From positions 1-44,767 of the IMG/VR virus record IMGVR_UViG_3300027575_000005: DNA of 44,767 nt. The stretch is one strand, 5' to 3'. The notes under the pieces were generated by a model that saw nothing but the letters and a program-made list of their open reading frames with translations, made no database searches and had not been told where the DNA came from. The DNA is from a virus. Taxonomy: Duplodnaviria > Caudoviricetes. The translations under genes and the position numbers were made by a program. Positions 7,485 to 33,955 of this stretch are shown here, piece after piece. How positions within the stretch are numbered: the first letter of the stretch is position 1; each line of letters begins with the position of its first letter.

Positions 7485-7533
7485 GCACTAACAAGAGAAC
7501 TGTCGGCAGAACCTATAACCAAAGGAGATACCA

Positions 7534-7953: not shown

Positions 7954-7955
7954 CT

Positions 7956-8204
7956 ATGGGTCACGAGAGGACAACGCGAACTGAAAGACCGGACTCGGTC
8001 AACGATCTGCCGGTGCTGAAATGCTTTGCGTGCGACGGCGCACGTAGCGAATTCTACTGTCCAAAATGTGAAAGAACAGGCTCGATCTTCTGGGTCGGTC
8101 GCGCATTTCCCTACACGCCAGAAGGCGAAAAACGCGCACTTGCTTTTCTCCGCAGCGAGACGGTGACCGATTCCGGCGCCGATCCCACGAAGGCCCTTTC
8201 GTGA
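7956..8204 (+). CDS. Zinc-finger protein bracketed by inverted GGTCA elements
   Basis: CFACDG...CPKCERTG; both termini are encoded by copies of the dispersed element. Confidence 0.6.
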   Translation: MGHERTTRTERPDSVNDLPVLKCFACDGARSEFYCPKCERTGSIFWVGRAFPYTPEGEKRALAFLRSETVTDSGADPTKALS

Positions 8205-8340
8205 TACAAACTGTTGACAACCTGTGCACACCGCGAGACACTTACCCGTCAAGGTGTCACTCACCATTCGCGGAGTATCTGCATGTAGAGGATCACCACG
8301 CAACCAAGCACAACCCAAACCTTTGTGAGACTTTCGTAGG

Positions 8341-8379
8341 GGCGTCGTTTCTGAAAATGGAACGACGCTCTTACTTTTT
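8341..8379 (+). terminator. Probable intrinsic terminator at the convergence of the two operons
   Basis: Stem GCGTCGTT/AACGACGC followed by TCTTACTTTTT. Confidence 0.5.
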
Positions 8380-8547
8380 GTTTGGAACACCGATGTCTAT
8401 CACCTTGGCCATGACCTTCCCGCATTTCTCGCAATCGTAATAAGCGTAGGCCAAGTCCTTCACCGGATGAGGTTCATACCGAGTCATCTTGATATGCGCG
8501 CCGCACTTGGGGCACTTGCCGTTGGCGGGGAGCTCGATGGACGGCAT
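8371..8547 (-). CDS. Zinc-ribbon protein (not in ORF track)
   Basis: MPSIELPANGKCPKCG...YDCEKCGKVMAKV...KK*, 58 aa. Confidence 0.65.
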   Translation of the reverse strand: MPSIELPANGKCPKCGAHIKMTRYEPHPVKDLAYAYYDCEKCGKVMAKVIDIGVPNKK

Positions 8548-8550
8548 CGG

Positions 8551-8901
8551 TCATGGCGGCAAGGTTGGCGGCGTTTTGCGCGAGATACCCGCATTATTAT
8601 CAATGATGATAAGCGCCGCTGCAATCTGGCGGTTAATGTCCGTGATCTGATTTTGCAGCAACGTCACCCGGTCGTCGGTGGCTTTGGACACCGCCTGAAA
8701 TGTACGATCCTCGACAGGCTCATGAGCTTGTTTGGAAATGATAGTGGATTGTGCTGCCTCAACGATAGCAAGCCGTCGCCCCAGATCGGAAATCGTTTTA
8801 TCAGTATTTGAGAATTGGTTTTGAGTGACTGCCCAAAGCGCGCCTATTCCTAGCGCAACGACAGTCACACCGATATTCAGCCAGGACTTGTCGTCGGCCA
8901 T
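8551..8901 (-). CDS. Membrane-anchored coiled-coil protein
   Basis: N-terminal TM followed by heptads; possibly lysis-associated. Confidence 0.65.
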   Translation of the reverse strand: MADDKSWLNIGVTVVALGIGALWAVTQNQFSNTDKTISDLGRRLAIVEAAQSTIISKQAHEPVEDRTFQAVSKATDDRVTLLQNQITDINRQIAAALIIIDNNAGISRKTPPTLPP

Positions 8902-8907
8902 TTTGCA

Positions 8908-9267
8908 TCAATGCCCCGCGTTAATCTTCGCCTGTATATCGGAAATCTGCCGCTGCAAATCGTTTATGCGCTGCTGCACTGTAGCACTCGGCGCCTTCGC
9001 CATGTCCTGTTGCGCCGCATAGAGCGAGCTTTGCAGTTGATTGAGTGCGAGAGTATTGATTGCCCTCGCGGTATCGACCTGGATCAGCTTGACCGGATCG
9101 ACCTGTTCATGAACAAAAGTTTTGCTTGCGGCTTCCGGCAATCCCATCGCCTCCCACGCCGGGGGCACCGCGACGATTGCTGTTGCGGTCGCCGTGATCA
9201 GTGCGAGTATCGAGGTAATGCTTTTGCGGAGACTCGTTCCCCATAATGCGGCTATTAAGTCATTCAT
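8908..9267 (-). CDS. Membrane-anchored coiled-coil protein
   Basis: AGGA RBS; TM followed by a Gln-rich coil. Confidence 0.65.
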   Translation of the reverse strand: MNDLIAALWGTSLRKSITSILALITATATAIVAVPPAWEAMGLPEAASKTFVHEQVDPVKLIQVDTARAINTLALNQLQSSLYAAQQDMAKAPSATVQQRINDLQRQISDIQAKINAGH

Positions 9268-9306
9268 GGCGATCCTGTATCGGTTGAGAGTTTCTATACG
9301 CCAGTT

Positions 9307-9783
9307 CTACATCGGCACGTGTTGTCGGCTGCTGATCATCAACAACAAATCGCGCGGATCGACCAAGTGTGCGGGAGCCGCAAGCGGAAATGGAAACCAT
9401 TCACAGGCACGCAGCGCGAGCGTGATGAGGGCCGAGCAGATCGCGTGATCGAGCGTGTGTTCGTGCTCGGGAATTAGGAACCCAAGAATTGCTTTCCAGT
9501 CGTAGGGTTCGCCTATATGAACTTGGAGAAAATTATAGAATTGGGCCGATCGCGAATCGGTTGTACCTTCGAGCGTCAAGAATAGTTCGTGGGAGAATTT
9601 ACCTGCGTCGTAGTTTTTCGGTCGTTTCTGGACGCCGCCACTCAAATGTGCGCCTAAATAAAAGCCGTCAGGGGTGACGGCTTCGACGTGTGAAGGTGTA
9701 AACGGCATCGCTGTCTTTTCAAGGGCAACGATGCCATCTGAGGCTAGGCCGATGCTGCGAACGAAACGAATGACGATTGGCAT
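9307..9783 (-). CDS. Permuted papain-like NlpC/P60 (YiiX/YaeF-type) cysteine hydrolase
   Basis: His before Cys order: PSHVE ... IGEPYDW ... ICSAL. Confidence 0.75.
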   Translation of the reverse strand: MPIVIRFVRSIGLASDGIVALEKTAMPFTPSHVEAVTPDGFYLGAHLSGGVQKRPKNYDAGKFSHELFLTLEGTTDSRSAQFYNFLQVHIGEPYDWKAILGFLIPEHEHTLDHAICSALITLALRACEWFPFPLAAPAHLVDPRDLLLMISSRQHVPM

Positions 9784-9798
9784 CGGTTTTTCTGGCTC

Positions 9799-10614
9799 TT
9801 AGAAGTCGTAGCGGATGTACGCCTTATACTGCGTTCCGATCTTCACGCTCGAATCAATCGTGATCGGAGCGCCGGCCGCAAAGACGTTATCGAACGTCAT
9901 CCCGCGGGTCGGCCAATCGACCGCAACGCCCATGTCGAGTGCGCCGCCGTTGGGTTTGCCGGTCGCATCAACCGTCTGCCATAGGTAGCCCGTGCGGAGA
10001 CCAGGCGCGATGCCCACCGTCTGTCCGGAAGCGGCGCCGAAATTGCCGCTGATGCCAAACTCCGTCACGAACGCCCCGAAATATTCCCGAGGCGTCACGG
10101 CGACCGCCACGTTGGATGGAAGTTGCGGGGTGAACGACGGGAACGGGTTCGAGAGACCAGTGCGGGTCAAGAGCATCTGCACCAGATCGGCTCCCACATC
10201 GACGCCCTGCATCGCTGACCAGCGGCTTGCGACCGAGGCGCTCGCGGCGCCGGTCGTTGCGGTAGCGCCCACGCTCACGCCGCCGCTGATGTTCTGGTAG
10301 GAGCCCGACAGATAGACGCGCGCCCATTGGGCCACGCCGGCAATCGAGGCATTGCCCCAGATGTAGCCAATTTCCGCATCCACGGACTGCCCAGCGGCGG
10401 TGAGGTTGCTGGTGACGAGCGACGTGGCAAAGACGTTGTTGCCCGACACGTTGGCCTGATCGACGCCGGCCGTGGTGCCGATTCCCCAATAGAAGCCGGA
10501 ACCGCTGTAAGTGAGGAACGGGCTGGGCTGTGCTTTAACCGGCATATCCGCCGCCATTGCCGCGGTCGAAGTCAGGAGCGCAAGGCCCCCGAGAATTCCA
10601 AGCAATTTGCGCAT
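9799..10614 (-). CDS. Outer-membrane beta-barrel protein (RopB/Omp25-like)
   Basis: Signal peptide, then AADMPVKA...YSGSGFYWG; C-terminal YIRYDF BamA-type motif; GGAG RBS. Confidence 0.75.
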   Translation of the reverse strand: MRKLLGILGGLALLTSTAAMAADMPVKAQPSPFLTYSGSGFYWGIGTTAGVDQANVSGNNVFATSLVTSNLTAAGQSVDAEIGYIWGNASIAGVAQWARVYLSGSYQNISGGVSVGATATTGAASASVASRWSAMQGVDVGADLVQMLLTRTGLSNPFPSFTPQLPSNVAVAVTPREYFGAFVTEFGISGNFGAASGQTVGIAPGLRTGYLWQTVDATGKPNGGALDMGVAVDWPTRGMTFDNVFAAGAPITIDSSVKIGTQYKAYIRYDF

Positions 10615-10700
10615 GATCTTCTCCGTTTGAGATTGACTTTACGCAGACTGCTTAACAGATAAAGGCGTGACAATTTTAGCACATCACAGATTTAAACGAC

Positions 10701-11559
10701 GGTTTGTTTGGTTAGACTGGCTACCTTGGCCCTCACGTCACCGTTAGGATTTTACGGCCATAGAGGTTTGTTAATTCTCACTCTTAGAGTGCGGATTTTT
10801 TTGGTTCGAACCGGCCCATAACAGGCTCAATATTCAGTGAGGCACGGTCGTAAATGCGCAACACGACGCCGAGCGCGCCGCACCATTTGATCAGATTGGA
10901 AAAGCGTGGGACGTTAGAACCGCGTTCCCAGCCCGTGAGAAATTGTGGATGGATGCCGAGCTTATGCGCGACTTCTTTTCGCGTAAGACCACGGCGCTCG
11001 CGCGCGGCCCTCAAATCACGGATGACCTCAATGGCCGACGTAACCTTGGCTCGCGGTCGTTTGAGCCCCATACTGCTCGCCATCTTCATGATGGACATCC
11101 AGGGGTGGCGCGGCAAAGCCTGCTTAATTGCTTCCTCATACGCGCAGGGATAGAGTTGGCGAAGCGTCTGCTTTTCAGACCGCAGCCATGGAGTTCGCTT
11201 TGCTGGCGTAGTTTTTCGTTTGGCGATGCCATCGCCCCAAAAGCAATAATAGCGGTCCACCGTCTGCCACGTCGTTCCGCACTGCTTCGCAGCTTGCGCA
11301 CGGTTCGTCTTCATTTCAAACCGGCTACGCAGTTTCTTGACGATCTCCAATGAGACAGAGCGGCCGGATTTCACCGGCACGTTGCCGCGCCGAAACATCG
11401 GGAAGCCGAGTTCGGCAGTCAGCAATTCGTCTATGTCGAGAATCTCGGTCATGATTTTCCGCATTCAGCGGTCTTGACTTTCATTTTCTCCACCCTCTAT
11501 GGCCGTAAGAATCTCACAGAACTTTTGAGGGCCAAGGTAGCCAAGCTAACAAACAAACC
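10701..11559. mobile_element. 859-bp unit bounded by 66-bp imperfect inverted repeats
   Basis: Arms 10701-10766 and 11494-11559 share exact blocks TGGCTACCTTGGCCCTCA (18 bp), TTACGGCCATAGAGG (15 bp) and GGTTTGTTTG. No transposase and no target-site duplication seen. Confidence 0.6.
10784..11452 (-). CDS. Multi-HTH DNA-binding protein (HTH, Myb/SANT-like and XRE domains)
   Basis: RAQAAKQCGTTWQTVDRY; PWLRSEKQTLRQLYP...SMGLKR; LRAARERRGLTRKEVAHKLG...GWERG..VPRFSNL. Start is 11452 or 11464. Confidence 0.75.
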   Translation of the reverse strand: MTEILDIDELLTAELGFPMFRRGNVPVKSGRSVSLEIVKKLRSRFEMKTNRAQAAKQCGTTWQTVDRYYCFWGDGIAKRKTTPAKRTPWLRSEKQTLRQLYPCAYEEAIKQALPRHPWMSIMKMASSMGLKRPRAKVTSAIEVIRDLRAARERRGLTRKEVAHKLGIHPQFLTGWERGSNVPRFSNLIKWCGALGVVLRIYDRASLNIEPVMGRFEPKKSAL

Positions 11560-11715
11560 TTACTTCGTCACCGGCTGATGCGCCTGCACCGTCTTGACGA
11601 TGTTCATAAAGTTCGGCGCCAGCGCCAGTAACGTTGCAATCCCGATCTTGGCGATGATGGCTTCCAGATCGGGACCGTTCTTCGAGGCGAGTTCGGCGAT
11701 CAGTTCTGGGTTCAT
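11560..11715 (-). CDS. Small protein downstream of holin (not in ORF track)
   Basis: MNPELIAELASKNGPDLEAIIAKIGIATLLALAPNF...*, 51 aa, ATGA overlap with the holin. Confidence 0.6.
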   Translation of the reverse strand: MNPELIAELASKNGPDLEAIIAKIGIATLLALAPNFMNIVKTVQAHQPVTK

Positions 11716-12023
11716 GGTGTCACCTTTGGTGCGGCGGGAGCATTGTTGGAAAGTGCGCTGATTGTCTGGTCTTTGGTCTGCGAATTTTTCGTCGAACCAA
11801 AATAGTAGGAGACGATGCTGCCCACCTGATTCGCCAGCACGCCGACCAGCGTCGTGAGTACCGCGAAGATTTGAGGATCGGCCTTCGGCGACGTAAAGAT
11901 CAGAAGGATGATGACCGCGATGAACGCCACCGAATAGAGCAGCGCCAAAATCTTTTGCGTGTCAGCCCACGATTCCGTAGGGTCGGCCTTCGGAGCGGGC
12001 GGCGTGATTGTCGTATCAGTCAT
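11712..12023 (-). CDS. Putative holin
   Basis: Two TMs and the IVSYYFGS motif, next to the endolysin. Confidence 0.7.
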   Translation of the reverse strand: MTDTTITPPAPKADPTESWADTQKILALLYSVAFIAVIILLIFTSPKADPQIFAVLTTLVGVLANQVGSIVSYYFGSTKNSQTKDQTISALSNNAPAAPKVTP

Positions 12024-12029
12024 AATTTT

Positions 12030-12161
12030 TCACCATGGGTAAGCAAAAATGCACATGAGGATAGCGACGGGCAATGCCAACGTGAAAGCCGCCGCCAATT
12101 GTCCAGCAACGCTCGGGCCAGTGTACGGGCGCCCGTCGCCTGCGTAGGGATAGTCCGTCAT
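12030..12161 (-). CDS. Small single-TM protein (not in ORF track)
   Basis: MTDYPY...LAAAFTLALPVAILMCIFAYPW*, ATGA overlap with the lysin. Confidence 0.5.
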   Translation of the reverse strand: MTDYPYAGDGRPYTGPSVAGQLAAAFTLALPVAILMCIFAYPW

Positions 12162-12748
12162 GACGTTGCCGCGGGCGCCGTTGCCATCTTAAGAGCGTCC
12201 GCACCAATTTCCATCGAACGCCGAATCCAATCGGTGCCAAAATATTTGAAGCCCGACAGCGCGCGGTAATAAGCCTGCCGCTCTATCGTGAACGCCTTGA
12301 TGATGCCAACCGGATTTGTGATCGCCTTGACCGCTGCATCCGTCTGCGGTCCCCACGCGCGGTCGGCAGTAATTTGCAGCGAGCGTTGCAGGATCAGCGT
12401 CGCCGCGCCGGGACCGGCGTTCACGGCCTCATCGAAGAACTGTAAGTCGAGCCCGGCTGGCAGCTTGGGGCATTCCGGCAACCAATACGAATTGTAGTAG
12501 ATGTCGGCGCCCTCAGTGCGACTGATCTTGCTCACGTCTTGCAGCGGCAGACCTTTGCTCCTGCGGTAGTGATCGTATTCCCGTTGAATGACGCCGCACA
12601 TCGTCTCGCCGCCCGGATCGTGAGCATCGTTCGAGAAGTTGCGCCGATTGCTCCAATCGTTGGGGAGCGGACACTCCTGAATCAAAGTGAAGGGCCAGCA
12701 CGCCGTAAAGCGCGGGTCCGCGAGAGCCGTTGCTGCGTCCGTCATCAC
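12158..12748 (-). CDS. GH108-family endolysin with PG-binding-3 domain
   Basis: E...NDAHDPGGETMCGV, IY...YW, FDEAVNAG, LQRSL, YFGTDWIRR. Confidence 0.85.
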   Translation of the reverse strand: MMTDAATALADPRFTACWPFTLIQECPLPNDWSNRRNFSNDAHDPGGETMCGVIQREYDHYRRSKGLPLQDVSKISRTEGADIYYNSYWLPECPKLPAGLDLQFFDEAVNAGPGAATLILQRSLQITADRAWGPQTDAAVKAITNPVGIIKAFTIERQAYYRALSGFKYFGTDWIRRSMEIGADALKMATAPAATS

Positions 12749-12754
12749 ATCACC

Positions 12755-12934
12755 CTATGGTTTCAGAAACCACACGTAATAGCCGTGTCCTACCGTCACC
12801 CCGAGAACGCCAAATCCTACGATACCGAGACCAAGAACGAACCTCTGAAACGGCGTCAACTTTTCCACGGACGGATCGGTGACCGAGTCCGGTCTCTCAG
12901 TTCGCACAGGACTCGCGTGACCAAAATGCCTCAC
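12755..12934 (-). CDS. Small single-TM protein (not in ORF track)
   Basis: GTG start overlapping the upstream TGA; MRHFGHASPVRTERPDSVTD...FVLGLGIVGFGVLGV...*. The N-terminus is encoded by a GGTCA element. Confidence 0.5.
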   Translation of the reverse strand: MRHFGHASPVRTERPDSVTDPSVEKLTPFQRFVLGLGIVGFGVLGVTVGHGYYVWFLKP

Positions 12935-13158
12935 GAATTCATCCTCTTGATTTCCTTCGGACTAGCCTTCTGCGGCGGCATCATACTCTCAAGCAACAGA
13001 CTACTCCCCCGTTTCGATATTTCCAACCCTGCGTTGAGGGCTGTCCACATGCCAAGAGACAGGATGGTTTCCGTCTTTCTCCCCCTGTTCACGACCACGC
13101 AAACACCTTCGACACCATCCATGAAGCCAACCCAGATTTCTTCGACGGTAAGGATCAT
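12931..13158 (-). CDS. Hypothetical protein
   Basis: AGGA RBS; operon orientation. Confidence 0.5.
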   Translation of the reverse strand: MILTVEEIWVGFMDGVEGVCVVVNRGRKTETILSLGMWTALNAGLEISKRGSSLLLESMMPPQKASPKEIKRMNS

Positions 13159-13224
13159 GGCGCGGTCCTGATTCTTTGAGGGTGAGTGACCCTGACTCCG
13201 CTTCGTTCATAGGTCAACGTCCAA

Positions 13225-13359
13225 TCACGTTATCCCGTGCAATCCCTTCTTTATTGTTGGTGAGCGTTTGTGGTTTTTGACTTTGCCGTGGCGTGGCTTG
13301 CGGATGACGCGCTTGGGTTTTATGGCGATGCGGGGAGGGTGTGGGAGTTGGTCAGGCAT
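13225..13359 (-). CDS. Small very basic protein (not in ORF track)
   Basis: MPDQLPHPPRIAIKPKRVIRKPRHGKVKNHK...*, 44 aa. Confidence 0.4.
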   Translation of the reverse strand: MPDQLPHPPRIAIKPKRVIRKPRHGKVKNHKRSPTIKKGLHGIT

Positions 13360-13549
13360 TTGGGTCACGAGAGGCCGGGGTTACGGTTCGGTCAACTTTC
13401 CGCCTGCGACGGGAAAGATCATAAATGTCTTTGTCGTGATACTCCCCGTCGATCAAATAACAATCAAACAAAACGCCGCGACAATCTTCTTCTCGATACA
13501 CCTTCCGTTTGGTGACCGATGATCCTGTCGGCTCACGTTCCGCCATCAT
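13352..13549 (-). CDS. Hypothetical protein in a GGTCA-bounded cassette
   Basis: Start lies in a long-form element and the end crosses a short-form element. Confidence 0.5.
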   Translation of the reverse strand: MMAEREPTGSSVTKRKVYREEDCRGVLFDCYLIDGEYHDKDIYDLSRRRRKVDRTVTPASRDPNA

Positions 13550-13559
13550 GACCCAAACC

Positions 13560-16500
13560 CTAATCCTGCAACTTCTTCATCTTGAACGCCGTAGCATCAG
13601 CCGGAATCTGCGGAAACTTCGCCATCATCACGCCCGACGCCGCTTCCCTGGACTGCCTGATAACCTCCGAAATCACATCATGCTTGATATGATTCGGCCA
13701 AGTCTGCCAGTCCGGAGATTTCACTATAGCATCAAGCCTCATCTTCGTCATCCGTCCAGAAATGCGGGAATAATCGTCATATTGCTGGTCGGTCAGGTCC
13801 ACATTCCTGATCTTGCGGATAGGCTGTGCCGGATAAATCCCAAGCTGTAGCATCGCCTGATTCACCGGATCGCGGTTCACGCGGGTCTCATAGATCGCCG
13901 TCACGCCCGCATGTCCCAAGGCTTCGTAGCTCGGCATTTCTTCGCCCCAAATATCCCTGCGAGGCAACAGAGTTTCAGACAATCCCGGCACCTTGGCCTT
14001 GATCGAATCCATCACGGTTCGGGCTTGACGCGAGTAGGGATCGGACGCCCGCGCCATCTGCGCCATACCGACAGAAAACGGCACGAACGAGGAAAGGAAA
14101 TTCTTGATATAGCCTTCGCCGTAGCGGCCGGGGTCCTCAACCGCCTTGATCAAATCCGCCGGACCTCTCATAAAAGATTCATCCAAGATGTTCTGCGTGA
14201 TCGCGTGCTGAATATGCGACGCTGCCATAAGCACATCGCCCTGTGCCGCCTCGTGCGCCACGTCGTAGAAATCCGCAGCCGTACTCATCAGCATACCCAT
14301 CGGCCCTAACCGATTGACCTGATACCAGATATCGCCGATACGAACGCTATGCGCTTGGTTGCCTGCCAATCTCCACATGGCCGATTGCCTTGGATCGGAA
14401 GGCCCGGAGCCCGAGGCGTATCCTTCCATCGCTAGCCCACCAAACAACAACGCCATCGACGTTCCGGCGATCATCCGCGCGCTCGCCATGTCTTGAGCAA
14501 TGTTGCCGTTCTTCCCCATAAGATCGGCGCGGATTTCGGGCGAGAGAATTCCAACGGGGGTCCTCTCGACAATCGCCTGTTTGATGATGTTCGCTCCGAT
14601 GTGAACGAACGGATCGATGAATTTTAATGGAGCAATCTTTCCAATCACGGGAAGATCGAGCGTGGCATTAGTGAGTTTGCTTAGAGCTTTGACGAACTCG
14701 CCGCCTTGTCCCATCAACGTCAATTGCGTGGCAGTCTCGCGCGACCGCTCCATGATTTCCGGGGTCGGATTCTGCCAGATATCGCCCACGCGCGAATCGA
14801 ACGCATTCCCCGTAAGACCTTCCTCCGATGCCGTCCGGAAGGCTTCCGCGCTCTTGTTCATCGAGTAAATGAGCGACCGGAAAAAGCTGTGGATAGCCGC
14901 CACGGATCGTCCTGGAACGCGGATCGTGGAGCCAACGGGAAGGACCGTGACGCCCCGGACGGCCAAATCCGGTATCTGCCCTAGCGTCGAATAGTTGGCC
15001 CCGATCAGCGGCGCCCCCTCGATTCCCCCGGCCTTGAGCAACGCCGCGCCGGCCACGAACCCATCCCGGATTCCCCGGATCATCGAGAATGCCTGTGCCC
15101 CAACTTCCCGCCACGCCACGGGATTATCGGTCATGCTCTTGGCCACCGCCAAACTGGTATCCCCCGAGAAAGGCATCAGGGGCCGCGCCTGTTCGCCTGG
15201 CAGGAGCGTGGTCTGTCCTGACCGCATCGCCTCAAGGAACGCCTCCGCAGCGCCGGGTAGCCCGCGGATCGCGCCTTTAAGCTGCGCCCCGACTTCACCG
15301 ATATGAACGACCTCGCCCGGCCGGCCGCCGGCACGCCTTGCGGCACCTAAAGCGGCGGCAATAGCAGTCTCGGGACCGGCCTTTTCGAGTGCCAGAATAA
15401 TATTACCCTGGACGTAGGTCACATGGGTCGCAATGCCCGAAATCAGCCCGTTAATCCAGTATTCCAATACCATCCCGCCGAACGAACGATCCCGTGCGTC
15501 ATTGAGGAATTTCGATATCTTGGCCGGGCTATCGAGTTGGGCACCCAGCTTGGCCTCCATTTTCAACTGGAACAGGGTTTTGCCGGTGGCCTGCTTTATG
15601 AATTCGTTCGTCGCTTGTGCACCTTCCTCCCCCGCCATGGTTCGGAACGCACGGAGCGCGCGGCCGGCTTCTGCCGTGATTCCCGCGACAGTCGCCTGAA
15701 TAAGTTGATGCCGGTCTTTTGCGATGGCGTAGGCCATTAAATCTTCGTCGGTCCCGATGGCCGCTTTCTTCATCGCGGCCGAGACTTCGGTAGCCGACTG
15801 GATCAAGAGCTTGCGGACGGCCCAAACTTGTTCGGCGTTGTACGCCTGCCCCACGACATGCTTTTTAACCAACGCCTCGGCGCCTTCCATGCCAAGGTCG
15901 TTGGCCAAGTCCTGCACCTGACCGTCAGTGACCACGCCGCGGCGGTCGCCGATAAAATCGTCGTTCTCGGAGGCCGCGTCGCGAATCGCCTCGCGCACGT
16001 CCTGGTCGTTGGTGAGGTTTTCCAGCCGGATATTGCCGGCCTTGTCTAGGAAGGGGGACTCTCTTGCCCCGAGGGAGGCTGCGGGGTTTGGAGCGAGGGG
16101 TTGGTCCCGAGTAGCGTTTGCAGGTTGGGGTCCTCGCTCGCCGCTTGGATGTTCATTGCCTTCTCGTACAGGTCCGCCGCCGCCTTCTTCGACTGTGCCG
16201 CGTCCCTCGCCCACGCCGCCGCCTGGGGCGACAGGTTCGGTCCCGCCGCCACCTGTGCCCAATACTGCTGATCCATCCTGGTCTGGTCTAGCTTCTCCTG
16301 GAGGCTCGGCGGCTGTTCCTGCGGTTGCTGCTTGCTCGGCTTGGACTTCGGCTGTCCGGGCTTGGATTTCATGGGCTATCTCTGCGTGGGGTTCCGCAAT
16401 GTAGCGGTCGGCTTCGTTGTTGACCATATCGCCGCGAGGTTCGGCCTCGTTCGGTGGTGTTTCACGCGCATCAACAACATGGATATCGGCAAGTGTCGGG

Positions 16501-19500
16501 CGGACGGTTCGTTCCGGCGCGATCACGGTTTTTTGAGGCTCCGTGGTTAACAGCCGGTCGAATACCCGCTTCACGTCGTCGTTTATGGGACTGCCTAGGC
16601 CCTTTATGGTCCGGTAGATGCCAAGGAGCCAGTTCTTGAACTTTGCGAATACGCCCGCGAGTTCCTGTGAGGGTGCGACGCCTTCCCTTAAATATTGTTC
16701 AAAGCCGCGGGCGAATTTCTCGTGGGCCTTTGTTGCGGAGATTTTCGATACGCGATTCGATTCGGGGTAGAGTTTCAAATCCTCCGGGCCTTTGAGGCCA
16801 AGCCAATCCGTGACGGTTTTCAGATCGTCTTTGAGGTCCTGCGGCGCGGCTTCGTGGCTTGCGTCTCTGACAAGCTCGGCAAGATATTGGTGGCCGCTTT
16901 CGTGGATGAAGGTCGAGGCATTACCTTCGCTGGTGATGCGTAGGAGAGGTTTGACGTTCTCCATGCCGATGTAATCGTGGCCGGGAACGGCGTTGGGATT
17001 TAGGACGATGCCGCCGCGTGCTTGTTGGAATAATTCTCTTTTCTCGGTGGGCAATCTCACTTCATAGACATAACCCGCCATACCATTTGTTATTCCTAAT
17101 GCGCTTTTGCGCGAATCTGGTGCTTCTATAACCTCATAACCGCGGCGCTTCAAAGCGTCGTAAACACGCATCCCGTCACTGGTAACGTTGATATCGGAAC
17201 GCAACGGCAAACCTTTTTCGTCGGCATATTTTATCGCACGCTCATAAAGTGCAGTCCCGATACCTTGACCGCGATTCGATTTTAGAACCGACGCTAAGCG
17301 ACTATATACCGCGTGGCGCCCCACCCACAAACTCAGAGAATCATCGGGATCATCTTTCGATCTGATAAATACATTGCCATTGTCGCGCTCGTCTACTTCG
17401 GTATCGTGCATGACTTTGGCAAGTTGAAACAATTCTCCTTGATTTTTTTCATCGCCAAACAACCCTTCATCCATCGGCTTCTGTTCGGCAGTCGGACGCA
17501 GCGGTTGATTGGCGGTGCGCTGCGCTCGTTCGGCATCGCTGATTCTCTCGGCTCCGGGAATCTGTTGCTGGCCTTCGGCCTCGCGCTCAGCGATCAAGTC
17601 GCGTTCCCGTTTCCGCTGGTAGAATTCCGTCCAAGTTTTTTCTCGATAATTTTCGCGATTTGCTCGTGTGCTAGCGCCAACTTCGGGTCCACCTTCCGCA
17701 GTTGCTTCGCTCGCTTCCTGTGCTCCTGCGGCGTCATCAGGTAGGGGTACGTCCCATCCGGGGATATGCTCGGCGCGTTCCGGATAACCTTTGGTTTCGA
17801 CGGCATGTTCGTCGGTCTCCATGATTGCTTGTTCGTGAGCTTTGCTCGGCTCTAACCTCTGGCGCGCGATAAGTTCGCGCGTTCGCGCCATGATGTGAGG
17901 TTCGATGTCTCTTGTGGTTTGGCCAATGTCTTTTAGATAATCATTGACGATTGTATCGACCTCGGCTTGTTCTGCGCGATGACGTTCGGCTTCCGCTTCG
18001 TCGATATCTCGAACCTTCGCGTCGGCAGGTTCGATGCCTTGGCGGTAAACCTTTGTGCCGCGGGCTTCCTTGTCGATGGCTTGCAGGAGTGTGTCGAGAT
18101 TCGATGTGGCTTCGCCTGCCTTGACTCCGGTTTGTCCGAGGTCTTGCAGATAGCCGGCTTCGACTGCGGCCTCCCTGGCGCGGTCAAGCGTCATGCCACC
18201 GGGGCGAATCAGTTGGCCGAATCCGGGCTCGAAATGGTTTTTGCCGCCGAAACTCTGTTTTACGTCGCCGATGTTCTTGTCGTCCGGTCGGATTCCGCCA
18301 CGATCTGTGAGGAATTGAAGGAGCGACCAGCGTTCTTGCGGGACGGCGCGTGGGCCGCGTGCGGCTTTGGGACCGACTGCGATTTCGGGTTCCGGCTCGT
18401 ATAGTGGTGTGGTTGCTTCCTTGAAACTTACAGGTTTGTCACCGACTAAGCCTTTTTGTGGCTCGGCGTTGTAGCTCTTGCTGATGCCGTTGGCGTCGGG
18501 CTTGGCGATTAGAGTGTAAGTACCGTCAGAATTTTTCTTCGTGATAAGCAGGTCTTTGACAAAACCCACGTCCACGACATTGCCGGGAGTCCACACTTGC
18601 GTTGCACGGCGGCGGATGGGCGCTCCGGTTTTGGTCCGCTGGTCGTTGTAGCCGGTCGCGATATTCGCCGTCTGCTCGCGCTCCTGCCGTGCGGCGACAA
18701 AGGCATCCCACTGTTCGGCCGGCGCACGCTCGGCAAGCGGGGGCACTTCGGCCGCTGGCGTCGGTGCCACGGTTGGTGGTGCGGCAGGGGGCGGCGCTGC
18801 TGGTCCTTTCGGCCCCCGAATCAGCGCCCCCTCACGCTCGTAAAGCTCCTGCGCCGTCCCAAGGCGACCACCCATGCGCGCGGCTCTAGCCTCGTATCGT
18901 GCGGCGACAAGTTTGCCTGCGGCCTCGGCTTCCTCTGACGGTCTGCCGGCGGCGGTTAGTTGCTTGGCTACGTCTGCGGCGATGAATTGCTTTTGGGCCT
19001 CGATTGACCTTGGGGCAGTTCCGATAATGCCGGTTTCGGCGTCGATTGGTGCGGAAGGGCGGACCTCTGGCGGTGGAAACAATCCCCACGATTCCGATAC
19101 CGGCTGCGGTTCCACTGTGGGATGGCCGGATGCTTCTGCGGCCCTGCGGTAGGCGGCGGCGATCTTTGGTTCCAGTTCGGCAAGCTCTCCGTTGAGGGTT
19201 GCCAGATGCCCCGCTGCTACGGGTGCATTCTCGGTACCTTCCGACGTGACCCATTCCTGTAAGGTGTTGCGGCGCTGGTTGATTTCCTGGTATTGGTCGA
19301 AAAGGTCGGGGTCCATCCTGCGGGCGACTTGGTGAATATCGGGCAATGATGGGGTAGTTTGGGTCACGAGAGTCTCAGTACGTGCCGCGTCCTGTGCGGT
19401 CATCGCGGCGCCGGGATTCCGCTCGTGAGCGCCCTCGAATACCTCCTTGGTGACGCCTGGCCCCATGACGTTGAGATCGCTGGCCTGGGCGACGGTCGGG

Positions 19501-20618: not shown

Positions 20619-20659
20619 TTCATCCTCCGTGATTTGGTGACCGAACCGTAATCACCAAC

Positions 20660-23299: not shown

Positions 23300-23302
23300 G
23301 GA

Positions 23303-23839: not shown

Positions 23840-24375
23840 CAGGCGGCCTCAAGGCGGTAAGAGACAACGGTACTAACGCCACGGCCAAATGCGATGCGGG
23901 ATTCAGTCTGTTTGAACGCCTCAAGGATTCTTCGTCTGCCATACCGCGAGGATGACGACGGCGAATAGGCAAAAGCATCCGCCGGAAACAACCCAAGAAA
24001 CGCTGCAAATCTCTTTGAGGACTCATCCCCATCAAGAATCGTGGTCACAAGCTCGCGCTTGACCTCCATGATTTCGTCCAATTGGCGACGGGCTTCCTTG
24101 ACGATAGCAACTGGATATCTCATGGCCTTATTTGATAGCGCCAGCCAGACAAACCCGACTGCTGAGAGAGTGTCGCCCGTAACGCCACCAAGCCCGGCAA
24201 GGTCACCTTCGATCAACCACGCGCGGCGAAACGACGATTGGTCAAACTTATCCCGCAACTCCCTGTGCGAATCGATACCGATCATCGCAATAGCCTGCGC
24301 GTGTTCCGAACGCAGCAACCGCGCCATCCGGCCACAGTGCCAAGGCTTTGCATCGATGATCTGGAACGCGGTCAT
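23839..24375 (-). CDS. T7 gp13-like / GNAT-fold virion assembly protein
   Basis: LLRSEH...GFVWL...SKRFAAFLG pattern; position between nozzle and ejection proteins. Confidence 0.7.
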   Translation of the reverse strand: MTAFQIIDAKPWHCGRMARLLRSEHAQAIAMIGIDSHRELRDKFDQSSFRRAWLIEGDLAGLGGVTGDTLSAVGFVWLALSNKAMRYPVAIVKEARRQLDEIMEVKRELVTTILDGDESSKRFAAFLGLFPADAFAYSPSSSSRYGRRRILEAFKQTESRIAFGRGVSTVVSYRLEAA

Positions 24376-24656
24376 TGTTTGGTCGGGTTCATATCATGGT
24401 AGTTCATGCCGCTCTTGTTCTCAGGATCAAGCGCCTGTTGCAACAGCATGACGCCCTTGGTCGCGTGCGCGATCATGTAGAACAAAAGCTCGCGCTGCTG
24501 CGAATTCGGCATCCTGCGGATTGCTCGGCCTGTTCTTTCATGTCGGGAGGCGAAAGCCGCTGATATTCGCTGAGTATCCCCGCTGGCGACAACGGAGGCA
24601 ACAACGCCGCTGTGACCGATGATGCTTTCCCGTTTCGCTCCCCGCTCATGATGCAA
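24372..24656 (-). CDS. Small inserted gene; frame uncertain, possibly split
   Basis: Starts in a long-form GGTCA element. ATG 24649 reads MSGERNGKASSVT... to 24473, while MPNSQQRELLFYM... to 24372 is in another frame. Confidence 0.4.
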   Translation of the reverse strand: MHHERGAKRESIIGHSGVVASVVASGDTQRISAAFASRHERTGRAIRRMPNSQQRELLFYMIAHATKGVMLLQQALDPENKSGMNYHDMNPTKQ

Positions 24657-24659
24657 ACC

Positions 24660-27600
24660 CTATTTTTCCTGCTGCTTTTTCGGCCACTGCGTCTGCGCGG
24701 TATCACCCGGAAGAATCTCAGGATAGAGCGAAAGAATGTTCATGGGTAGTGGTGAATCCTGCTGCAACGCGACTTGTCCAGTGGTCGCAATGCCTCCCCC
24801 TGTAGGAATGCGGATATCCCCCGTAAACAGTGGCGTGGTCAATGAGTTGTAAGGAGGCCGCGGCCGATTCGGAGCCCCAGCGTAGATCACTCTGGTTAAT
24901 CCCCCAGCACCCTCGTTCCAAGGCACCGAGACTGGCATAGGCGACTGCGTCGAAGCGTCAGGCTGATTCGTCCCCATTCTGATTCCAGTCCCGCCAGAAG
25001 CCTCAAGCCGCACGGTCACCGCAGGAATCTTCTTCCTCTGGGCCTGCAATGTAGGCTCCCCAGCATCAAGATAAACCGTTTGAAACTGCGGCAGGAACGC
25101 CAATCCTACCACGACTTGCGAAGCGGCAGTGCCCAACGTGATCGTCCCCGTCGCCGAAACCACAGTCGGGGAAATCACATTGCCGTCCGCCAGTCCCGTG
25201 ACCGTAGCCCCCGCCAAATGCTGCAAGCCGCCAATGACCGTGACAGGAGCCGTCATCGTCCAAGACCCTGCCGGCTGCGATTCCACGATCCCACCCGAGT
25301 TCGGCACCACATCGATAATCGGAGAGAGGATATTCGCCGTGACATGCTCGGAATCGGTAAACGCCGTAATCGAAGCAATCCCGCCGCCCATCCGGATAAC
25401 GGACCCCACGTTCGGAGCCGAAAAGACCGCAGCCGAAGCCGTGAACGTCGCGGTATTGCTCAAGGTCACAACCGCATTCGGCGCGCTCGCGAACGAACCG
25501 CCCTGAGAGCCGGCCGGGTCGTTGAATACCAGTTGCGGATTGAGATAGCCGGTTCCCTGAGAGCTAAACGTGATCCCGGTAATCACGCCGCCAGCAATCG
25601 TCAGAACAGGAACGGCACCCGTGCCAGGCCCCGGCGGTCCATTAGGAATCAAGGGAGCGTCAATGACAGTTGCCGTCGTCCCCGCCGACCATCCCGAGTT
25701 CGTTGCAATCGACGTAACGCCTGTGCAAGCCCCAAGCCCCGTCGCCGAGCTTGCCGTCAGAGACGCAGCAGGAGTCGGCTGCGAAAGAGACAACCCGGCA
25801 TCAACGGCCCACACGTCCTCTGACGCGAGCCACTGTCGGTTGTCCATCCGCTCGATCATGTACGCGGTATTCGTTCCGGGAAATCTCTGCGTCGCCAGAT
25901 AGAGAGCATTGTTCGGAGGCTCTACCACAGAGCAAACACTCACGAATATTCCGTTCGTATCGTGCCGCCCCCAACCTGCAATCTGCTGCGATTTATAATA
26001 GGTCAGACTCAGCATTACGCCGTCACTGCGCACCGCCCATAACAATTTGTAAGGCTGCTCGCACCACGCATGTTGCAAGATGGTGTAGTTCTTGAACAGA
26101 TGCGAAGAATTCTCCGTGATATCGATTGGCTCAGACAGCGCATAAAGCTGATAGGGAAGATCGCGATAGTATGATCCTTGCGCCTCCACATAGATCACGT
26201 CGTAATTGATCTTGATCGGCGGCACAGTGGGAGAACAACCAGAAAACGCTTGCGTGGTGACGTTCTGACTCGATGGCGAAATCTCTTGCACGTTCGTCGC
26301 AAAAGAACCTGTACCAACGAGAAGCCAAGCCGAAAGCCCCGTCATCACCAACAAACCACCCGAAGTCGGCACCATCCACTGAATGCCATTGACCTCGAAC
26401 GACCACGGCGATCCTGTGATAGCGTCGGAATCAATCGTCGGAATTCTGGTATCAAAATTGGTGAACGCTCCCGGTTGAGACATATAATAGGTGTCGGGAT
26501 TATTGAGGGTGTTCGCGTAGGCACGTCGTTCCTGAAAATAGGAAACCGTGGAAGGATAAGTTCCACTCTCCGGACCAATAGTCAGTTGCGCCGTCGCCGA
26601 TCCCCCACCTACAACGACAACCGCAACGGTATCGCCCGGCTCAAATCCCTTGCCTCCATCAGCCACGTTGATTTGCACCAACACGCTATTGACGATGATA
26701 GGCACAAGGACCGCATCCGTCCCGCCCGCGGTTCCAAACGTGAACGTAACCGATGTGACCGTGCCAGAGCTTGTCAGCACTTGGACGGATTGAATCTGCC
26801 CGCGCGCAAATGGGTCCTGATGTGTCGGAGGAACCTGCGCATAATCCGCGACGATATTGTTGTCGGCGAAAGATGCTCCATAGGCTTGCCCCGCAAACCC
26901 GTACAAAGCGCCCCCCGGAATCGGCACAGGACCCGGAAGCGGTTGAGCTTTGTAGACGTTGTACTCTTGAACACCGAGAGTCGCGGGCGGCGTCCATGTT
27001 ATGAGAATAGTCCCGGCCGTGCTCGCAACATCTACTGCGTTGCTCACAAGAGCGATATTAGATGCGATGCTTTCGCTTCCGTCTGTCGGGCTTACCGCCG
27101 TCACCACATAGCCGTAGTCTGTGCTCCCCGCCGAAGTCGCACTCCCTGCAGCATTGGTCGGCGGCAGCACTGATGGTTCCGGAACAACAGCAGTAAAATT
27201 CCAACTCGTATCCGAAACGCGATTCAAATCCTGCGCTGGGTATTCCGTTTGCGTTATCTGATTCACACAGCAAATTGACATCACGTCCGCCGATTGCGTG
27301 AATTTCAGATAGTCCAAATCCGCCTCGGCATAGATCGTCGTGAGCGTGAAGATTCGCGACGCCAACCCGCCCGATGTATAAACCCCGAACGCCGTGGAAT
27401 TGATCGGATTACCGTACACGTCATGTAAAGTCAGAGAACTCCCGGCAACGAGCGCGATGACCGCAGTCAGGCCGTTTAGTTGCGTCATTCCGCCAACACC
27501 GGAAATCTCTATCCAATCGCCTGCGTTGAAGAATGGCACGAGAGAAATAGGCGTCGTGGTGACCGTGAATTGTGCTCCGATGCCGCTTCCGGTTGTGGAG

Positions 27601-28688: not shown

Positions 28689-28700
28689 TGTTTGGTCCTA

Positions 28701-29594: not shown

Positions 29595-29597
29595 CGC

Positions 29598-30787: not shown

Positions 30788-33409
30788 CTACTGAATCCCA
30801 TAGATGATGATTGAGCCTGACGTTATATTGCCCGAATCCATCAAGACTTGGAAGCCGTCAACGACGCCTGCGGTGTTCCAATAACCGGACGATGCGCTAT
30901 TTGTCAGACTGCCATTTCCATTGAGATAGCCACCATTGACATATATCATGCAAAGTGCGTTTGCCGATGGAGTCGTTATGATAGCATTCCCAGAAAAACC
31001 AGGAGCAGCATTGGCTAGAGAGGCGGCGTTTGCATCGGCAGGTAAACTGATTGGAATATAAGTGGTGGAAGTACCGCCGCTGCTGGTATTTGAGATCAGG
31101 ACGGTATTATTTGACAGATATCCAGTGGCTTTGAATGCACCACCAGAATGGATTTGTAGTTGCAGTATTTTTTCGTTTGTTGCCGGCACGATGTTCTGAA
31201 ACACCAGCAAGTACGACGTGTAGGTGTTGGTGATATGCGTGGTGTCGCTCAACGACGCTGAATTGCTCGCAGTCAGCGTTGCGAGATTCACCATCGCGCC
31301 GGCAACGTTGGTGCCGCAGGTCGGGTCTGCACTCGCACCACCGCCGACGATGACCTGATTGGTTGCACATGGTCCCACAGCGTTCTGCGCCGACGCGCCT
31401 TCGCTGATTGGGATGGAATGTGCGGCGGCTGTGGCGTGACCTGTTCCTCCATTAGGAACAGTCACCGGAGACGACACCGTTAAGGCGGCTACTGCTAAAT
31501 TGCCTGCATTATCCAAGATGGCAGTAGACTCGCAGCTTACCGTACCGCTGCTGGCCGCATTATTGTAAAGGATACAACCGGCCGAGCCAGGGCTGACAAT
31601 TCCGGTTTTAGCAACGACAATGGAAGATGGGCCAGCGGCGCGGAAAATTCTCCATGCTGCACCATCGTAGCCGACGAGAAGATCGAGCGCGCCGCTACCG
31701 CCCGTAACTGTCGTTCCCGGCGTGGTGCAGGTGCCGTCGCCGCAATTCGCCGCGAGGCCATCAACGATGTGGGAGATTTGGCCGGCGGTCGGGGAGGCAG
31801 GGAGGCCGGCATAGGTGTGTGCCGCCAAAGTGGGGTCGGCGATCGTCGGCGCTTGCTGCCCAACGAGAATGCCGATTCCGGTCATTCCATCGCCAAAGCT
31901 ATCCTGATAGCCTTGCTGAAATTGGCAGTTGCCGGTGCTTCCCGGCATTTGACTACTGCAACTTGCATTGCTTGCGAGAAGTAGCCGGCCTGGGCCTACG
32001 CCAAAAAAAGTAGGCCCAGATGATCCGGCATCGCCACTACCAGAATGTGCCCATGCGCTAAGGTCAATATTTGAACTGATGCTTTGGGCAAACTGCGTCC
32101 AAGTAACAGCAGATGGAATGTGTGTCGTACCCGCGGCGACAAAATACCCGCCCGCAGAAATGTTCCAATGGTAATTAAAATTAGCGAGGATTGTCTCGCC
32201 GCCGCTCGTCATGTTTGACGAGGCTCCGCCGTTCACGCTTACGTGCGAACCACTGCCTCCCCAAGAGCCCCAATAGATATTACTGTAGTCGCAGATCGCT
32301 AGCTGTCTGCAAAAAATGCCCGTGCCGCCGCTTGCCGCAGTTATTTCTAAATTATTGACCCCGGCCTCCCCTCCATCTTGGATGACAATACCATTGCCGC
32401 TATGACTGCTGTCCGCAGCAGCAATGGAAAGAATGACGCTTGTCGGCGACCCAATATCGCCGTTGATAGAGACGAGCTGCGAAGAACTTCCGCCTGAATT
32501 TCCTTGAATCGTGCAAAGATTGCCGTTTCCGTCTGGCGCCGAATAGGTGCCGTGAGCAAGATTGATTGGTCCGACCGTTCCAAGGAACGTCGCAACCTGA
32601 GAAACAAACTGACACGCCGTCGCCAGCGTGCAGGCATTCCCCGAACTGAGACAGGTGCCGGTGCCGGTCGCCGTGGGCGCAGCAAAGAGAGGTAGCCCAC
32701 CGACCGGGGCATTAAGCACCCCGCACTGCCACGTCCCGGAAATTCTCAGAAGGTCGTAATTGTTGGTCGCGCACGCTCCATCAAGCGCCGCACTCTGCGT
32801 GCGGTTACCGAGCACGCCCGCATTGTTATAAAGCTCAAATCCACTCGTGCCGCTCGCAATGGGTGTCGTTCCGATAATGAGTGAACCGAGTCCGCCATTG
32901 ATCGGCGCACAACTCCCATTCACACAAACGTCAAAAGGCAGCGGAATCGCCGTACCACCAGACCCATAAATCAGTTGACCGCCTTGGATTCCTCCCGCGG
33001 TCGTGTTCGGCGAAAAGCAAAGAAAATGATACCCAGTCGGATTCGTAATCGGCGCATCGTAATCGCACCAATTCGTACCGAATGGTCCGGTCCCTTGTCC
33101 GGCATACGGAGGCGTGCCGGTTCCGCGAGCAACAAGAAGCTGCTCCGACAAACCATAACCCGTCGCGCCGCCACCGGCAGGCCCGGAATCCTGCACCACG
33201 GCCTGCCCCGAGCCTTGGCCCGTATACATCGGCGCGTGGCCTGGCGCCCAAGGTCCGCCTTGCAGAATCGTACCTTGCGCGAACACCGCTGTTGCGGAGA
33301 ACAGGAAAGAACAGAGGATCAGGATTGCGTCACGAGAGCGGAGCGATAACGGTTCGGTCACCCGCGCCAGAGTGACCGTGATGAGTCGCATCATGCGATC
33401 AGCCCTCAT
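30788..33409 (-). CDS. Tail fibre/spike-like protein with signal peptide, Cys-rich
   Basis: Hydrophobic leader ending AVFA|Q; beta-helix-like centre; VPNGGTG fibre motif; C-terminal LATLTASNSASL...SGNITSG..IYG fibre-tip domain. Confidence 0.7.
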   Translation of the reverse strand: MRADRMMRLITVTLARVTEPLSLRSRDAILILCSFLFSATAVFAQGTILQGGPWAPGHAPMYTGQGSGQAVVQDSGPAGGGATGYGLSEQLLVARGTGTPPYAGQGTGPFGTNWCDYDAPITNPTGYHFLCFSPNTTAGGIQGGQLIYGSGGTAIPLPFDVCVNGSCAPINGGLGSLIIGTTPIASGTSGFELYNNAGVLGNRTQSAALDGACATNNYDLLRISGTWQCGVLNAPVGGLPLFAAPTATGTGTCLSSGNACTLATACQFVSQVATFLGTVGPINLAHGTYSAPDGNGNLCTIQGNSGGSSSQLVSINGDIGSPTSVILSIAAADSSHSGNGIVIQDGGEAGVNNLEITAASGGTGIFCRQLAICDYSNIYWGSWGGSGSHVSVNGGASSNMTSGGETILANFNYHWNISAGGYFVAAGTTHIPSAVTWTQFAQSISSNIDLSAWAHSGSGDAGSSGPTFFGVGPGRLLLASNASCSSQMPGSTGNCQFQQGYQDSFGDGMTGIGILVGQQAPTIADPTLAAHTYAGLPASPTAGQISHIVDGLAANCGDGTCTTPGTTVTGGSGALDLLVGYDGAAWRIFRAAGPSSIVVAKTGIVSPGSAGCILYNNAASSGTVSCESTAILDNAGNLAVAALTVSSPVTVPNGGTGHATAAAHSIPISEGASAQNAVGPCATNQVIVGGGASADPTCGTNVAGAMVNLATLTASNSASLSDTTHITNTYTSYLLVFQNIVPATNEKILQLQIHSGGAFKATGYLSNNTVLISNTSSGGTSTTYIPISLPADANAASLANAAPGFSGNAIITTPSANALCMIYVNGGYLNGNGSLTNSASSGYWNTAGVVDGFQVLMDSGNITSGSIIIYGIQ

Positions 33410-33430
33410 GACCCAGAATCTTTTCTTGCC

Positions 33431-33934
33431 TTAGCAGTGCGTGACGATGCCGTTGATGACCGCAAAACTCGAACTCGGAGTGCCCGAGCACGACACCGGA
33501 TTGATAGCCTGTCCATTGACATTGAAATTCAATGGCAGACTTGAAGCGATTCCACCAGCACCGTATGCGATCAATCCCCCACCGCTTGCGTTCGGCGAGA
33601 AGCACAGGAAGTGATAGCCGGCGGCGGCGTTTGTGGGACCGTCGTTCATGCAGGCGATTGAGCCGAATGGGCCTGTGCCTTGTCCGACGTAAGGAGGCAA
33701 CCCCGTGCCGGTCGCTTGGAGTAGAAGTTCGCTCAATCCCGTTCCCGTCGCCCCGCCGCGCGCCGGGCCGCTGTCGGTAACGACGGCTTGGGAACTGCCG
33801 CTAGGGACATAGGCCGGCACATGTCCCGGCGTCCATGGTCCGCCTTGAAGCAAGGACGATTGCCCGAATGCCGGGATCGAAAGACTCAGCGCAAGAATGA
33901 CCGTGATGAGCCGCAGTGCAGTTTGCCCTCTCAT
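33431..33934 (-). CDS. Exported protein paralogous to the N-terminal domain of 30788..33409
   Basis: Leader ending PAFG|Q; shares QGGPW.PGH...DSGPA.GGATG.GLSE...GQGTGPFG...GYHFLCFSPN. Confidence 0.75.
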   Translation of the reverse strand: MRGQTALRLITVILALSLSIPAFGQSSLLQGGPWTPGHVPAYVPSGSSQAVVTDSGPARGGATGTGLSELLLQATGTGLPPYVGQGTGPFGSIACMNDGPTNAAAGYHFLCFSPNASGGGLIAYGAGGIASSLPLNFNVNGQAINPVSCSGTPSSSFAVINGIVTHC

Positions 33935-33955
33935 GAGACCAATCCTTAGACCTTT

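Follow-up and report, generated by a model that had tools for sequence, protein, structure and literature searches.

A two-box DNA element at gene boundaries coincides with breakpoints of gene content in a podophage contig and its relatives

Introduction

The virus record IMGVR_UViG_3300027575_000005, analysed here over its entire length of 44,767 nucleotides (44.8 kb, below called the window), is a fragment of a podophage genome, in which T7-like tail and internal virion genes occupy the minus strand and small genes are numerous on the plus strand; neither a terminase nor a portal was recognised. Copies of an element with two boxes are dispersed over the window, and an earlier note, made from the sequence alone, had proposed that they are asymmetric ends or recombinase binding sites of a non-autonomous element that drops small genes (morons) directly after stop codons. 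The two-box site family is real, is located at gene boundaries, and has downstream DNA that differs among related phages. It works most like the pdif modules of plasmids, with the site geometry of sfx, and belongs to neither group.

The pdif modules of Acinetobacter plasmids have XerC/XerD arms of 11 bp around a 6-bp spacer (PMC13141974), the enzyme is supplied in trans and single modules are replaced by two crossovers (PMC13141974; PMC10132070), and IS1202-family elements insert beside the sites (PMC10132070). The present element resembles them in having small accessory modules between inversely oriented asymmetric sites and in the landing of insertion sequences beside the sites, here of the IS1595 family. 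Unlike pdif it is 38–49 bp long with two directly repeated boxes, is found in phages and is often unpaired, and a comparison by eye with the pdif sequences in Table 1 of PMC13141974 gave no likeness. The sfx sites of the Rci recombinase in the R64 shufflon consist of 12+7+12 bp with one conserved and one variable arm (PMC11852207), and the same geometry with one conserved arm is obtained from an empty 19-bp junction of our element together with its two CGGTCA boxes. Whereas the core of sfx is conserved, its recombinase is encoded next to it and inversions take place within one cluster, the core varies here, the sites are genome-wide, the second box is 24–37 bp away and no inversion was seen; nor was a tyrosine recombinase gene adjoining the element found in the window or in the 13 near-complete carriers.

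In T4-type phages dozens of PeSL (promoter early stem-loop) repeats per genome are located at gene boundaries and mediate modular shuffling of small genes; they are σ70 promoters with stem-loops upstream of genes (PMC2839356). The mosaic cores and swaps described below are compatible with such repeat-mediated shuffling, but our element has no hairpin and no transcriptional polarity, and it forms facing pairs. Stoperators of the cluster A mycobacteriophages are likewise asymmetric, protein-binding and intergenic, with many sites per genome, and are 13 bp long with one orientation relative to transcription (PMC3029335). The present element is three times longer, unoriented, and coincides with breakpoints of gene content.

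The signals of V(D)J recombination also consist of two boxes, with spacers that differ in length by about one helical turn and are joined by the 12/23 rule. By analogy only, short copies here never pair with short ones and tip-to-tip junctions occur; unlike V(D)J, long-long pairs are common and no RAG-like or other transposase is linked to the sites. REP/REPIN sequences (repetitive extragenic palindromes and their doublets), mobilised by HUH enzymes, differ in that the element has no stable single-strand hairpin, and of the tandem direct repeats with core duplication at cassette ends that mark integron arrays there is no excess, with one such case only (L125). No description of the motif was found in the literature searched, with subscription papers and supplements outside its coverage.

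The element and its copies in the window

The consensus has an outer box TTTG-NN-TCAYGAGAG, then a spacer, and then an inner box CGGTCA-MC (the tip). The short and long length classes of the earlier note stand, with 38–39 and 46–49 bp, and by sequence the window copies fall into three classes, long B, long C and short S; over all loci the box spacings of these classes cluster at 33–36, 32–33 and 24–25 respectively. The spacer relations that had been reported are all present: the short copies have ACGGTTCGGTCA in common, copies 7958(+) and 12923(-) share a long spacer, and copies 13562(-) and 24662(-) each begin at a TAG stop codon, that of the 2281-aa and that of the 1342-aa structural gene respectively. 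The features are as follows.

7955–8003, plus strand: element, long B, spacing 35; faces 8162–8210; a 98% identical copy is at the orthologous place in locus L272
8002–8163, unstranded: insert of 162 bp between facing tips; with both elements it forms an 82-aa Cys-rich open reading frame (ORF), 7956–8204, plus strand
8162–8210, minus strand: element, long B, spacing 35; spacer family differs from that of its partner 7955–8003
12878–12926, minus strand: element, long B, spacing 35; unpaired; overlaps the start of ORF 12755–12934, upstream of the endolysin
13359–13396, plus strand: element, short S, spacing 24; faces 13511–13557
13395–13512, unstranded: insert of 118 bp between facing tips, 46% G+C
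13511–13557, minus strand: element, long C, spacing 33; directly follows the stop codon of the gene for the 2281-aa internal virion protein
19358–19404, plus strand: doubtful copy within the 2281-aa gene; has a good outer box but lacks the class-specific inner part
20636–20674, minus strand: element, short S, spacing 25; unpaired; contains the stop of an 879-aa gene and precedes the 70-aa gene 20406–20618
24611–24657, minus strand: element, long C, spacing 33; unpaired; opens an insert of 285 bp that separates the tail gene from the next core gene
33324–33362, plus strand: element, short S, spacing 25; faces 33371–33417 across 12 bp
33361–33372, unstranded: 12-bp junction of an empty facing pair, in frame at the 5' end of the 873-aa gene; the same in L026/L071
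33371–33417, minus strand: element, long C, spacing 33; partner of 33324–33362
33896–33942, minus strand: element, long C, spacing 33; unpaired; overlaps the start of the 167-aa gene 33431–33934

A strict pattern matches the window 6 times as compared to 0.02 in 100 dinucleotide shuffles (maximum 1), so that the motif is indeed above shuffled expectation. The first matrix finds 11 places at 29–42 against a shuffle maximum of 21, a circular result because the matrix was trained on ten of the same copies. A class matrix for which 265 copies from the whole set of loci served as training data, used with a threshold of 14, retains ten window copies with scores of 27.8–60.5, and above 14 it gives one match in 30 shuffled windows and one in 879 kb of tail-related loci (68 loci). 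Of the eleven copies counted in the earlier note, that at 19364 passes the first matrix but fails the class model. Contigs from two probable source runs span positions 7000–25987 with one difference, and the copies within that stretch are therefore not assembly artefacts.

The cores are mosaics of left and right halves. A fourth class, with TCATTC in place of TCAYGA in the outer box, is seen in L214, L268, L198, L149, L142 and L185, where its copies face B or S copies across 12, 19 or 25 bp; it lies outside the matrices and all site counts are therefore lower bounds. Hairpin-based mobility was rejected, as eight window sequences contain no stable hairpin (z -1.34 to +1.38), and so was variation of the type made by diversity-generating retroelements (DGR), as the mismatch spectrum is not adenine-specific. 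A likeness to LexA-type direct repeats fits only part of the short class, and one to the ends of Tn7 or CRISPR-associated transposons was dropped since the tips have no conserved TG..CA. The two genes behind 20668 and 24651 have TGACCG at their starts; this is their native start and no part of the element, and L011 has it without the element.

Breakpoints in related phages

Relatives retain the upstream gene together with the element and then diverge directly past the CGGTCA tip, and the sharp break there agrees with the proposal in the earlier note that changes of gene content should coincide with the motif. Among alignments entering from upstream, 69 distinct cases end at the tip, and in 11 cases the element and the downstream DNA are in common and the similarity ends at the outer box. 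In a set of 43 pairs the upstream DNA is homologous, the cores are 94% identical and the downstream DNA is unrelated (partly shared in a few); identity in these is 62% at tip+1 and 46% at tip+3, as compared to 52% and 34% in 696 unrelated pairs, and 30 of the 43 already differ by the third base past the tip; with near-identical cores the break maps to tip+0 to +2. When both flanks of a slot are homologous, five of six pairs hold unrelated inserts, of 123–1267 bp. In the window, the element 12878–12926 and its downstream gene recur behind different upstream DNA in L130/L188 and L123/L204, while 33324–33362 has 32 of 33 bases in common with the unrelated phage L072. The two core genes around the 20636–20674 junction abut in L011, and the tail gene and the next core gene are less than 30 bp apart in 31 of 42 related loci; the ten other inserts found at the latter junction in these loci are all without the motif.

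Near-identical cores are also found at non-homologous loci, in 282 pairs of which 44 are within one contig. Genome G005 has four and G002 three identical cores of 30–41 bp at unrelated places, and the identity of such recurring cores ends at the TCA of each box. The class of the core can change at one and the same locus, with 12 switches between short and long among 108 pairs.

Comparison of filled and empty sites, as the earlier note had suggested, does give empty junctions in relatives, and at 91 sites relatives have the upstream DNA without the element, but the outer junction, among the comparisons listed, is ragged and wanders by 10–30 bp in relatives that are 70–95% identical. None of 280 predicted precise junctions was found, where the relatives may be too distant, and this result rules against the core as a precise insert. 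There is no target duplication of 4–8 bp at 16 offsets flanking 55 facing pairs, and duplications of 2–3 bp are at chance level; composite transposons between outward-pointing copies were rejected, 5–9 bp duplications being not above chance. Core duplication of the integron type was rejected, as same-strand tip cores are not enriched downstream. One case only was seen, in L125 (3126–3330), where the insert is flanked by an 11-bp near-duplicate of the tip that L183 does not have; it looks like the integration of a circle at the tip.

Facing pairs and empty junctions

Inward-facing pairs were part of the earlier description, and in the window they enclose 162, 118 and 12 bp from tip to tip, with four of the ten copies having no facing partner. 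Over all loci, 39 of the 56 neighbours within 600 bp face each other, with 14.9 expected (maximum 27 in 2000 permutations), and the median distance is 529 bp for facing neighbours and 2363–2736 for the other three arrangements. Short copies never face short copies (0 of 54 pairs with 5.3 expected, P 0.0006; 0 of 40 after retaining one pair per slot group), whereas 25 of the 54 are long-long, and members of the same spacer family face each other in 7 of 54 pairs with 18.1 expected. The P values are to be taken as guides, because related phages share slots and the spacer families were drawn by hand after the data were seen.

Gaps under 60 bp cluster at 19 bp (10 of 25 distinct gaps) and 12 bp (4 of 25, two of these being the window and its relative), some partners having been recognised from nothing more than the hexamer. 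Each of the ten 19-mers has C at position 9 and G at position 11, giving a C-N-G centre, and their halves each read M-C-N-W-W-N-C-K-C around one central base. Filled tips retain a weak form of this consensus with the symmetry centre at the same place.

Position relative to genes

By gene calls made within this analysis, 11 of 237 sites are wholly intragenic, as compared to 2172 of 3420 random positions (64%). The flanking genes are co-oriented in 203 of 236 cases, whichever direction the element points, and its orientation relative to the genes is balanced (113 versus 123). The outer box adjoins gene starts as often as stops (123 versus 113); often its opposite strand carries a GTG start codon (21 cases), or the box is located 4–24 bp behind a stop. 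As the boundary position is independent of the direction of transcription the element is not a promoter or terminator, and a stoperator was rejected on the same ground; placement at boundaries without polarity indicates that it acts at the DNA level and has been trimmed into gene boundaries. The peptides shared by unrelated proteins that had been pointed out earlier are real, but are a by-product of the DNA motif being read in different frames; at 24649, the frame giving ER..SSVT reaches a stop after 58 codons and the next gene is reached in another frame.

Two genes that begin in a class C element are those of 167 aa (33431–33934) and 873 aa (30788–33409). The former is a tandem paralog, with an offset of 585 bp, of the N-terminal domain of the latter; both N-termini are signal-peptide-like, and the domain is widespread in tail-related phages.

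Search for an enzyme, and insertion sequences at the tips

When 69 and 57 proteins of the window were compared with PHROGs and Pfam, no recombinase was recognised, the contig being a fragment, and this confirms the earlier statement for the window. The earlier suggestion of a co-occurring recombinase or transposase found no support among carriers, none being common to them: one tyrosine-recombinase family is present in 5 of 13 near-complete carriers (in G007 the Pfam search missed it) and in none of the 8 controls, and it may simply be the prophage integrase. Among 143 further proteins of two near-complete genomes, a scan that excluded proteins over 700 aa, the mobility genes are one integrase and one IS1595 transposase. 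No autonomous copy with a transposase between element ends was found in the fetched loci, host genomes having been scanned for the short class only, and 1.19 Mb yielded no orphan inner box of a long class that might form one end of a full-length element.

Insertion sequences of the IS1595 family do land at the sites. In locus L272, orthologous to window positions 7488–8908, an IS1595 element with cargo is inserted precisely at the 7961 tip, and the 8 bp spanning tip-1 to +6 (window 8000–8007, the left edge of the 162-bp insert) are duplicated; the window shows the state without it. A C copy in L167 has its inner box duplicated through insertion of a second, different IS1595. Carrier loci contain 11 distinct IS1595 places, of which the two just described overlap a tip, another starts about 22 bp past a tip, six are unlinked, and two have an unconfirmed repeat-like sequence at a similar distance. 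Since IS1595 transposases are present in 6 of 13 near-complete carriers (0 of 8 controls, which may have other hosts), these elements are visitors and not the general enzyme. The L272 element (2006–4167) has a cargo gene of 357 aa, and its right end gives a ribosome-binding site and ATG to the downstream Cys-rich gene, which in the window has its start from the element at 7955.

Proposed explanation and alternatives

The comparisons show that the outer box stays with the neighbouring core gene, that the sequence switches at the CGGTCA tip or no more than two bases from it, and that unlike copies are opposed around short stretches that can be exchanged. We give a probability of about 0.5 to the reading that the copies are one-sided recombination sites for a recombinase supplied in trans. 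A protein would contact the two boxes from the same side of the helix, synapsis would bring together a pair of unlike ends, and strand exchange at or just past the tips would join them to each other, leaving an empty slot. Joining instead to the tip of another copy would swap inserts between slots or between co-infecting phages, and joining to a weak look-alike in foreign DNA would capture a gene or a piece of one. New positions would likely arise when ordinary recombination of the phages moves the element and its insert to another gene boundary, and would persist if no gene is disrupted there. A tyrosine recombinase is the first candidate because of the 12+7+12 geometry of the empty junction with one conserved arm. 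Of the earlier proposal, asymmetric recombination sites are retained, with coinciding breakpoints, unlike partners and a non-autonomous look, whereas the dropping of morons after stops is not.

Several results weigh against one-sided sites, for which the supporting evidence is entirely comparative. The break at tip+0 to +2 is 4–6 bases short of the cut at +6/+7 that a 7-bp overlap predicts, although an earlier, looser profile showed some excess identity up to +7 and the cut is therefore not fixed; the central 7 bp differ from site to site, which would be an obstacle to a recombinase needing identical overlaps. No recombinase common to carriers was found, no resolvase is present in the 13 near-complete carriers, and the tyrosine-recombinase family is missing from G005, G008 and G010, which hold 12–15 copies. 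No inverted insert was seen in orthologous slots (55 pairs). The contigs from the two probable source runs, which drop rare variants, showed neither an inversion nor a joint at an element, and the far ends of inserts behind unpaired copies have no excess of duplicated tip cores.

The alternative that survives best, possible though somewhat unlikely, is that the element is a protein-binding site kept for an architectural or regulatory job. Being a repeat of 30–41 bp at gene boundaries, it would be used as a linker by the homologous recombination of the phages, and modules would be exchanged as documented for PeSLs (PMC2839356). A crossover anywhere in the core gives exchange at both boxes, in accordance with the 69 tip and 11 outer cases and with the left and right mosaics; classes are partly genome-specific (45285_000115 is all C and 36790_000128 all B), no dedicated recombinase was found in carriers, and the avoidance of like with like could reflect selection against near-perfect inverted repeats. 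Facing pairs are, on the other hand, not predicted by homologous exchange, which also leaves unexplained the 19-bp peak with its invariant C-N-G centre and the first junction to element-free DNA, and the element has no transcriptional polarity, unlike PeSLs and stoperators.

A stronger form of the recombination-site reading is doubtful: a V(D)J-like phage system in which the recombinase would pair unlike ends, their boxes differing by about one helical turn, join the tips into a 19-bp slot and reopen the slot for capture or swap of arbitrary DNA. The ends would then lend start and stop codons, and gene fragments would become new small genes.

It is rather improbable that facing copies are imperfect terminal repeats of a non-autonomous transposon (a miniature inverted-repeat transposable element or mobile cassette) inserting behind stops. 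Unlike partners in facing pairs, inserts at junctions that are empty in relatives and the 91 sites that are element-free in relatives would agree with this. In the form given in the earlier note, a transposon dropping morons is not supported, because no target duplication marks the outer ends, neither outside the 55 facing pairs nor beyond outward pairs; the outer junction is ragged, starts are as frequent as stops, many copies are unpaired, no orphan long-class inner box was seen, and the precise empty sites are missing, with the reservation on distant relatives made above.

Very improbable is a tiny selfish insert made of the TCA-to-TCA core alone, entering TTTGNN-TCA-MC by a single-strand or RNA-templated route with insert turnover as a secondary effect, which would explain why identical cores stop sharply at both TCA triplets and why classes switch at a locus, but leaves the pairing rule unexplained and finds its empty target reconstructed in 0 of 280 cases, the bare target not clearly enriched (15 in 1.19 Mb versus 11 in 0.88 Mb), no hairpin (z -1.3 to +1.4) and no adenine-specific mismatches such as DGR would give. 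Plain regulator sites are possible, but would leave the breakpoints and the pairing rule unexplained.

Distribution among phages

The first matrix finds 229 sites in 45 viral contigs and the class model 249 in 46; these counts describe the element family and not its full range, because carriers were found with its own patterns. The carriers, dozens of soil phage genomes, include according to pattern scans of viral contigs phages with other structural genes. A pattern search of whole records found the element in 20 of 22 records chosen as carriers, with up to 24 copies; none of 13 tail-related records has it, and a control with the pattern reversed gave no match. The tail protein retrieved 70 loci, among which the element is confined to the two closest ones (97% and 81% protein identity). 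A metagenome scan gave 61 loci, 17 of them duplicating known loci (one being the record of the window), and those examined are phage-like; of 74 loci from two tip-to-tip scans, 54 were dropped as element-free by the matrix. The plasmid and isolate-phage collections gave no meaningful match. The search of host chromosomes that the earlier note had suggested gave, with the short-class pattern only, a single match in 185,579 genomes, which is in housekeeping genes and fails the matrix.

The family most shared by carriers, present in 15 contigs (L083, 13420–14664, and 14 relatives), has no fixed place near the elements. By eye it is DNA methyltransferase-like, with two catalytic types and mix-and-match N-terminal domains, and the one member scanned had no Pfam match. 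The carrier phages L126, L087, L206 and L114 have gene clusters of sugar pathways between the portal and capsid genes, encoding RmlD-like, radical SAM, DegT aminotransferase, hexapeptide acetyltransferase and glycosyltransferase proteins, which possibly serve modification of the virion or the DNA. A 577-aa phage protein in L130 (8090–9823) has a weak match to ART-PolyVal (ADP-ribosyltransferase), below the cut-off.

Other features of the window

The host is probably a soil bacterium of the Hyphomicrobiales, which we presume from the porin-like N-terminus of ORF 9799–10614. This 271-aa protein has no Pfam or PHROG match, and its 116 homologues have no informative names; many are on phage-sized contigs, and 5 of 10 other element-rich contigs have one. 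A small ORF at 6943–7188 matches ribosome modulation factor with 26.8 bits, just below the Pfam cut-off of 27.9, and an O-antigen ligase-like (Wzy_C) gene is located within the structural region (39680–41107). The early region has a 39-bp direct repeat (2008–2046 and 2253–2291, 92%, 245 bp apart) and a 25-bp inverted repeat (2978–3002 and 3076–3100), both unrelated to the motif.

The unit at 10708–11553 lies between 28-bp inverted repeats (89% complementary) and contains solely a helix-turn-helix regulator gene, 10784–11464. Its repeat ends recur in other phages around different contents, in L166 beside an IS1595 transposase, and it is probably a non-autonomous cassette of IS1595 type.

Significance

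Mosaicism of phage genomes is mostly ascribed to illegitimate recombination on which selection then acts. In the phages described here the breakpoints are marked by a defined DNA site that follows a pairing rule, at up to 24–29 places per genome and in phages with different structural genes, and the element, undescribed in the literature searched, adds a variant of site-bounded gene modules. If an enzyme serves the element, it would be the phage counterpart of the pdif modules and a new source of one-armed recombination sites.

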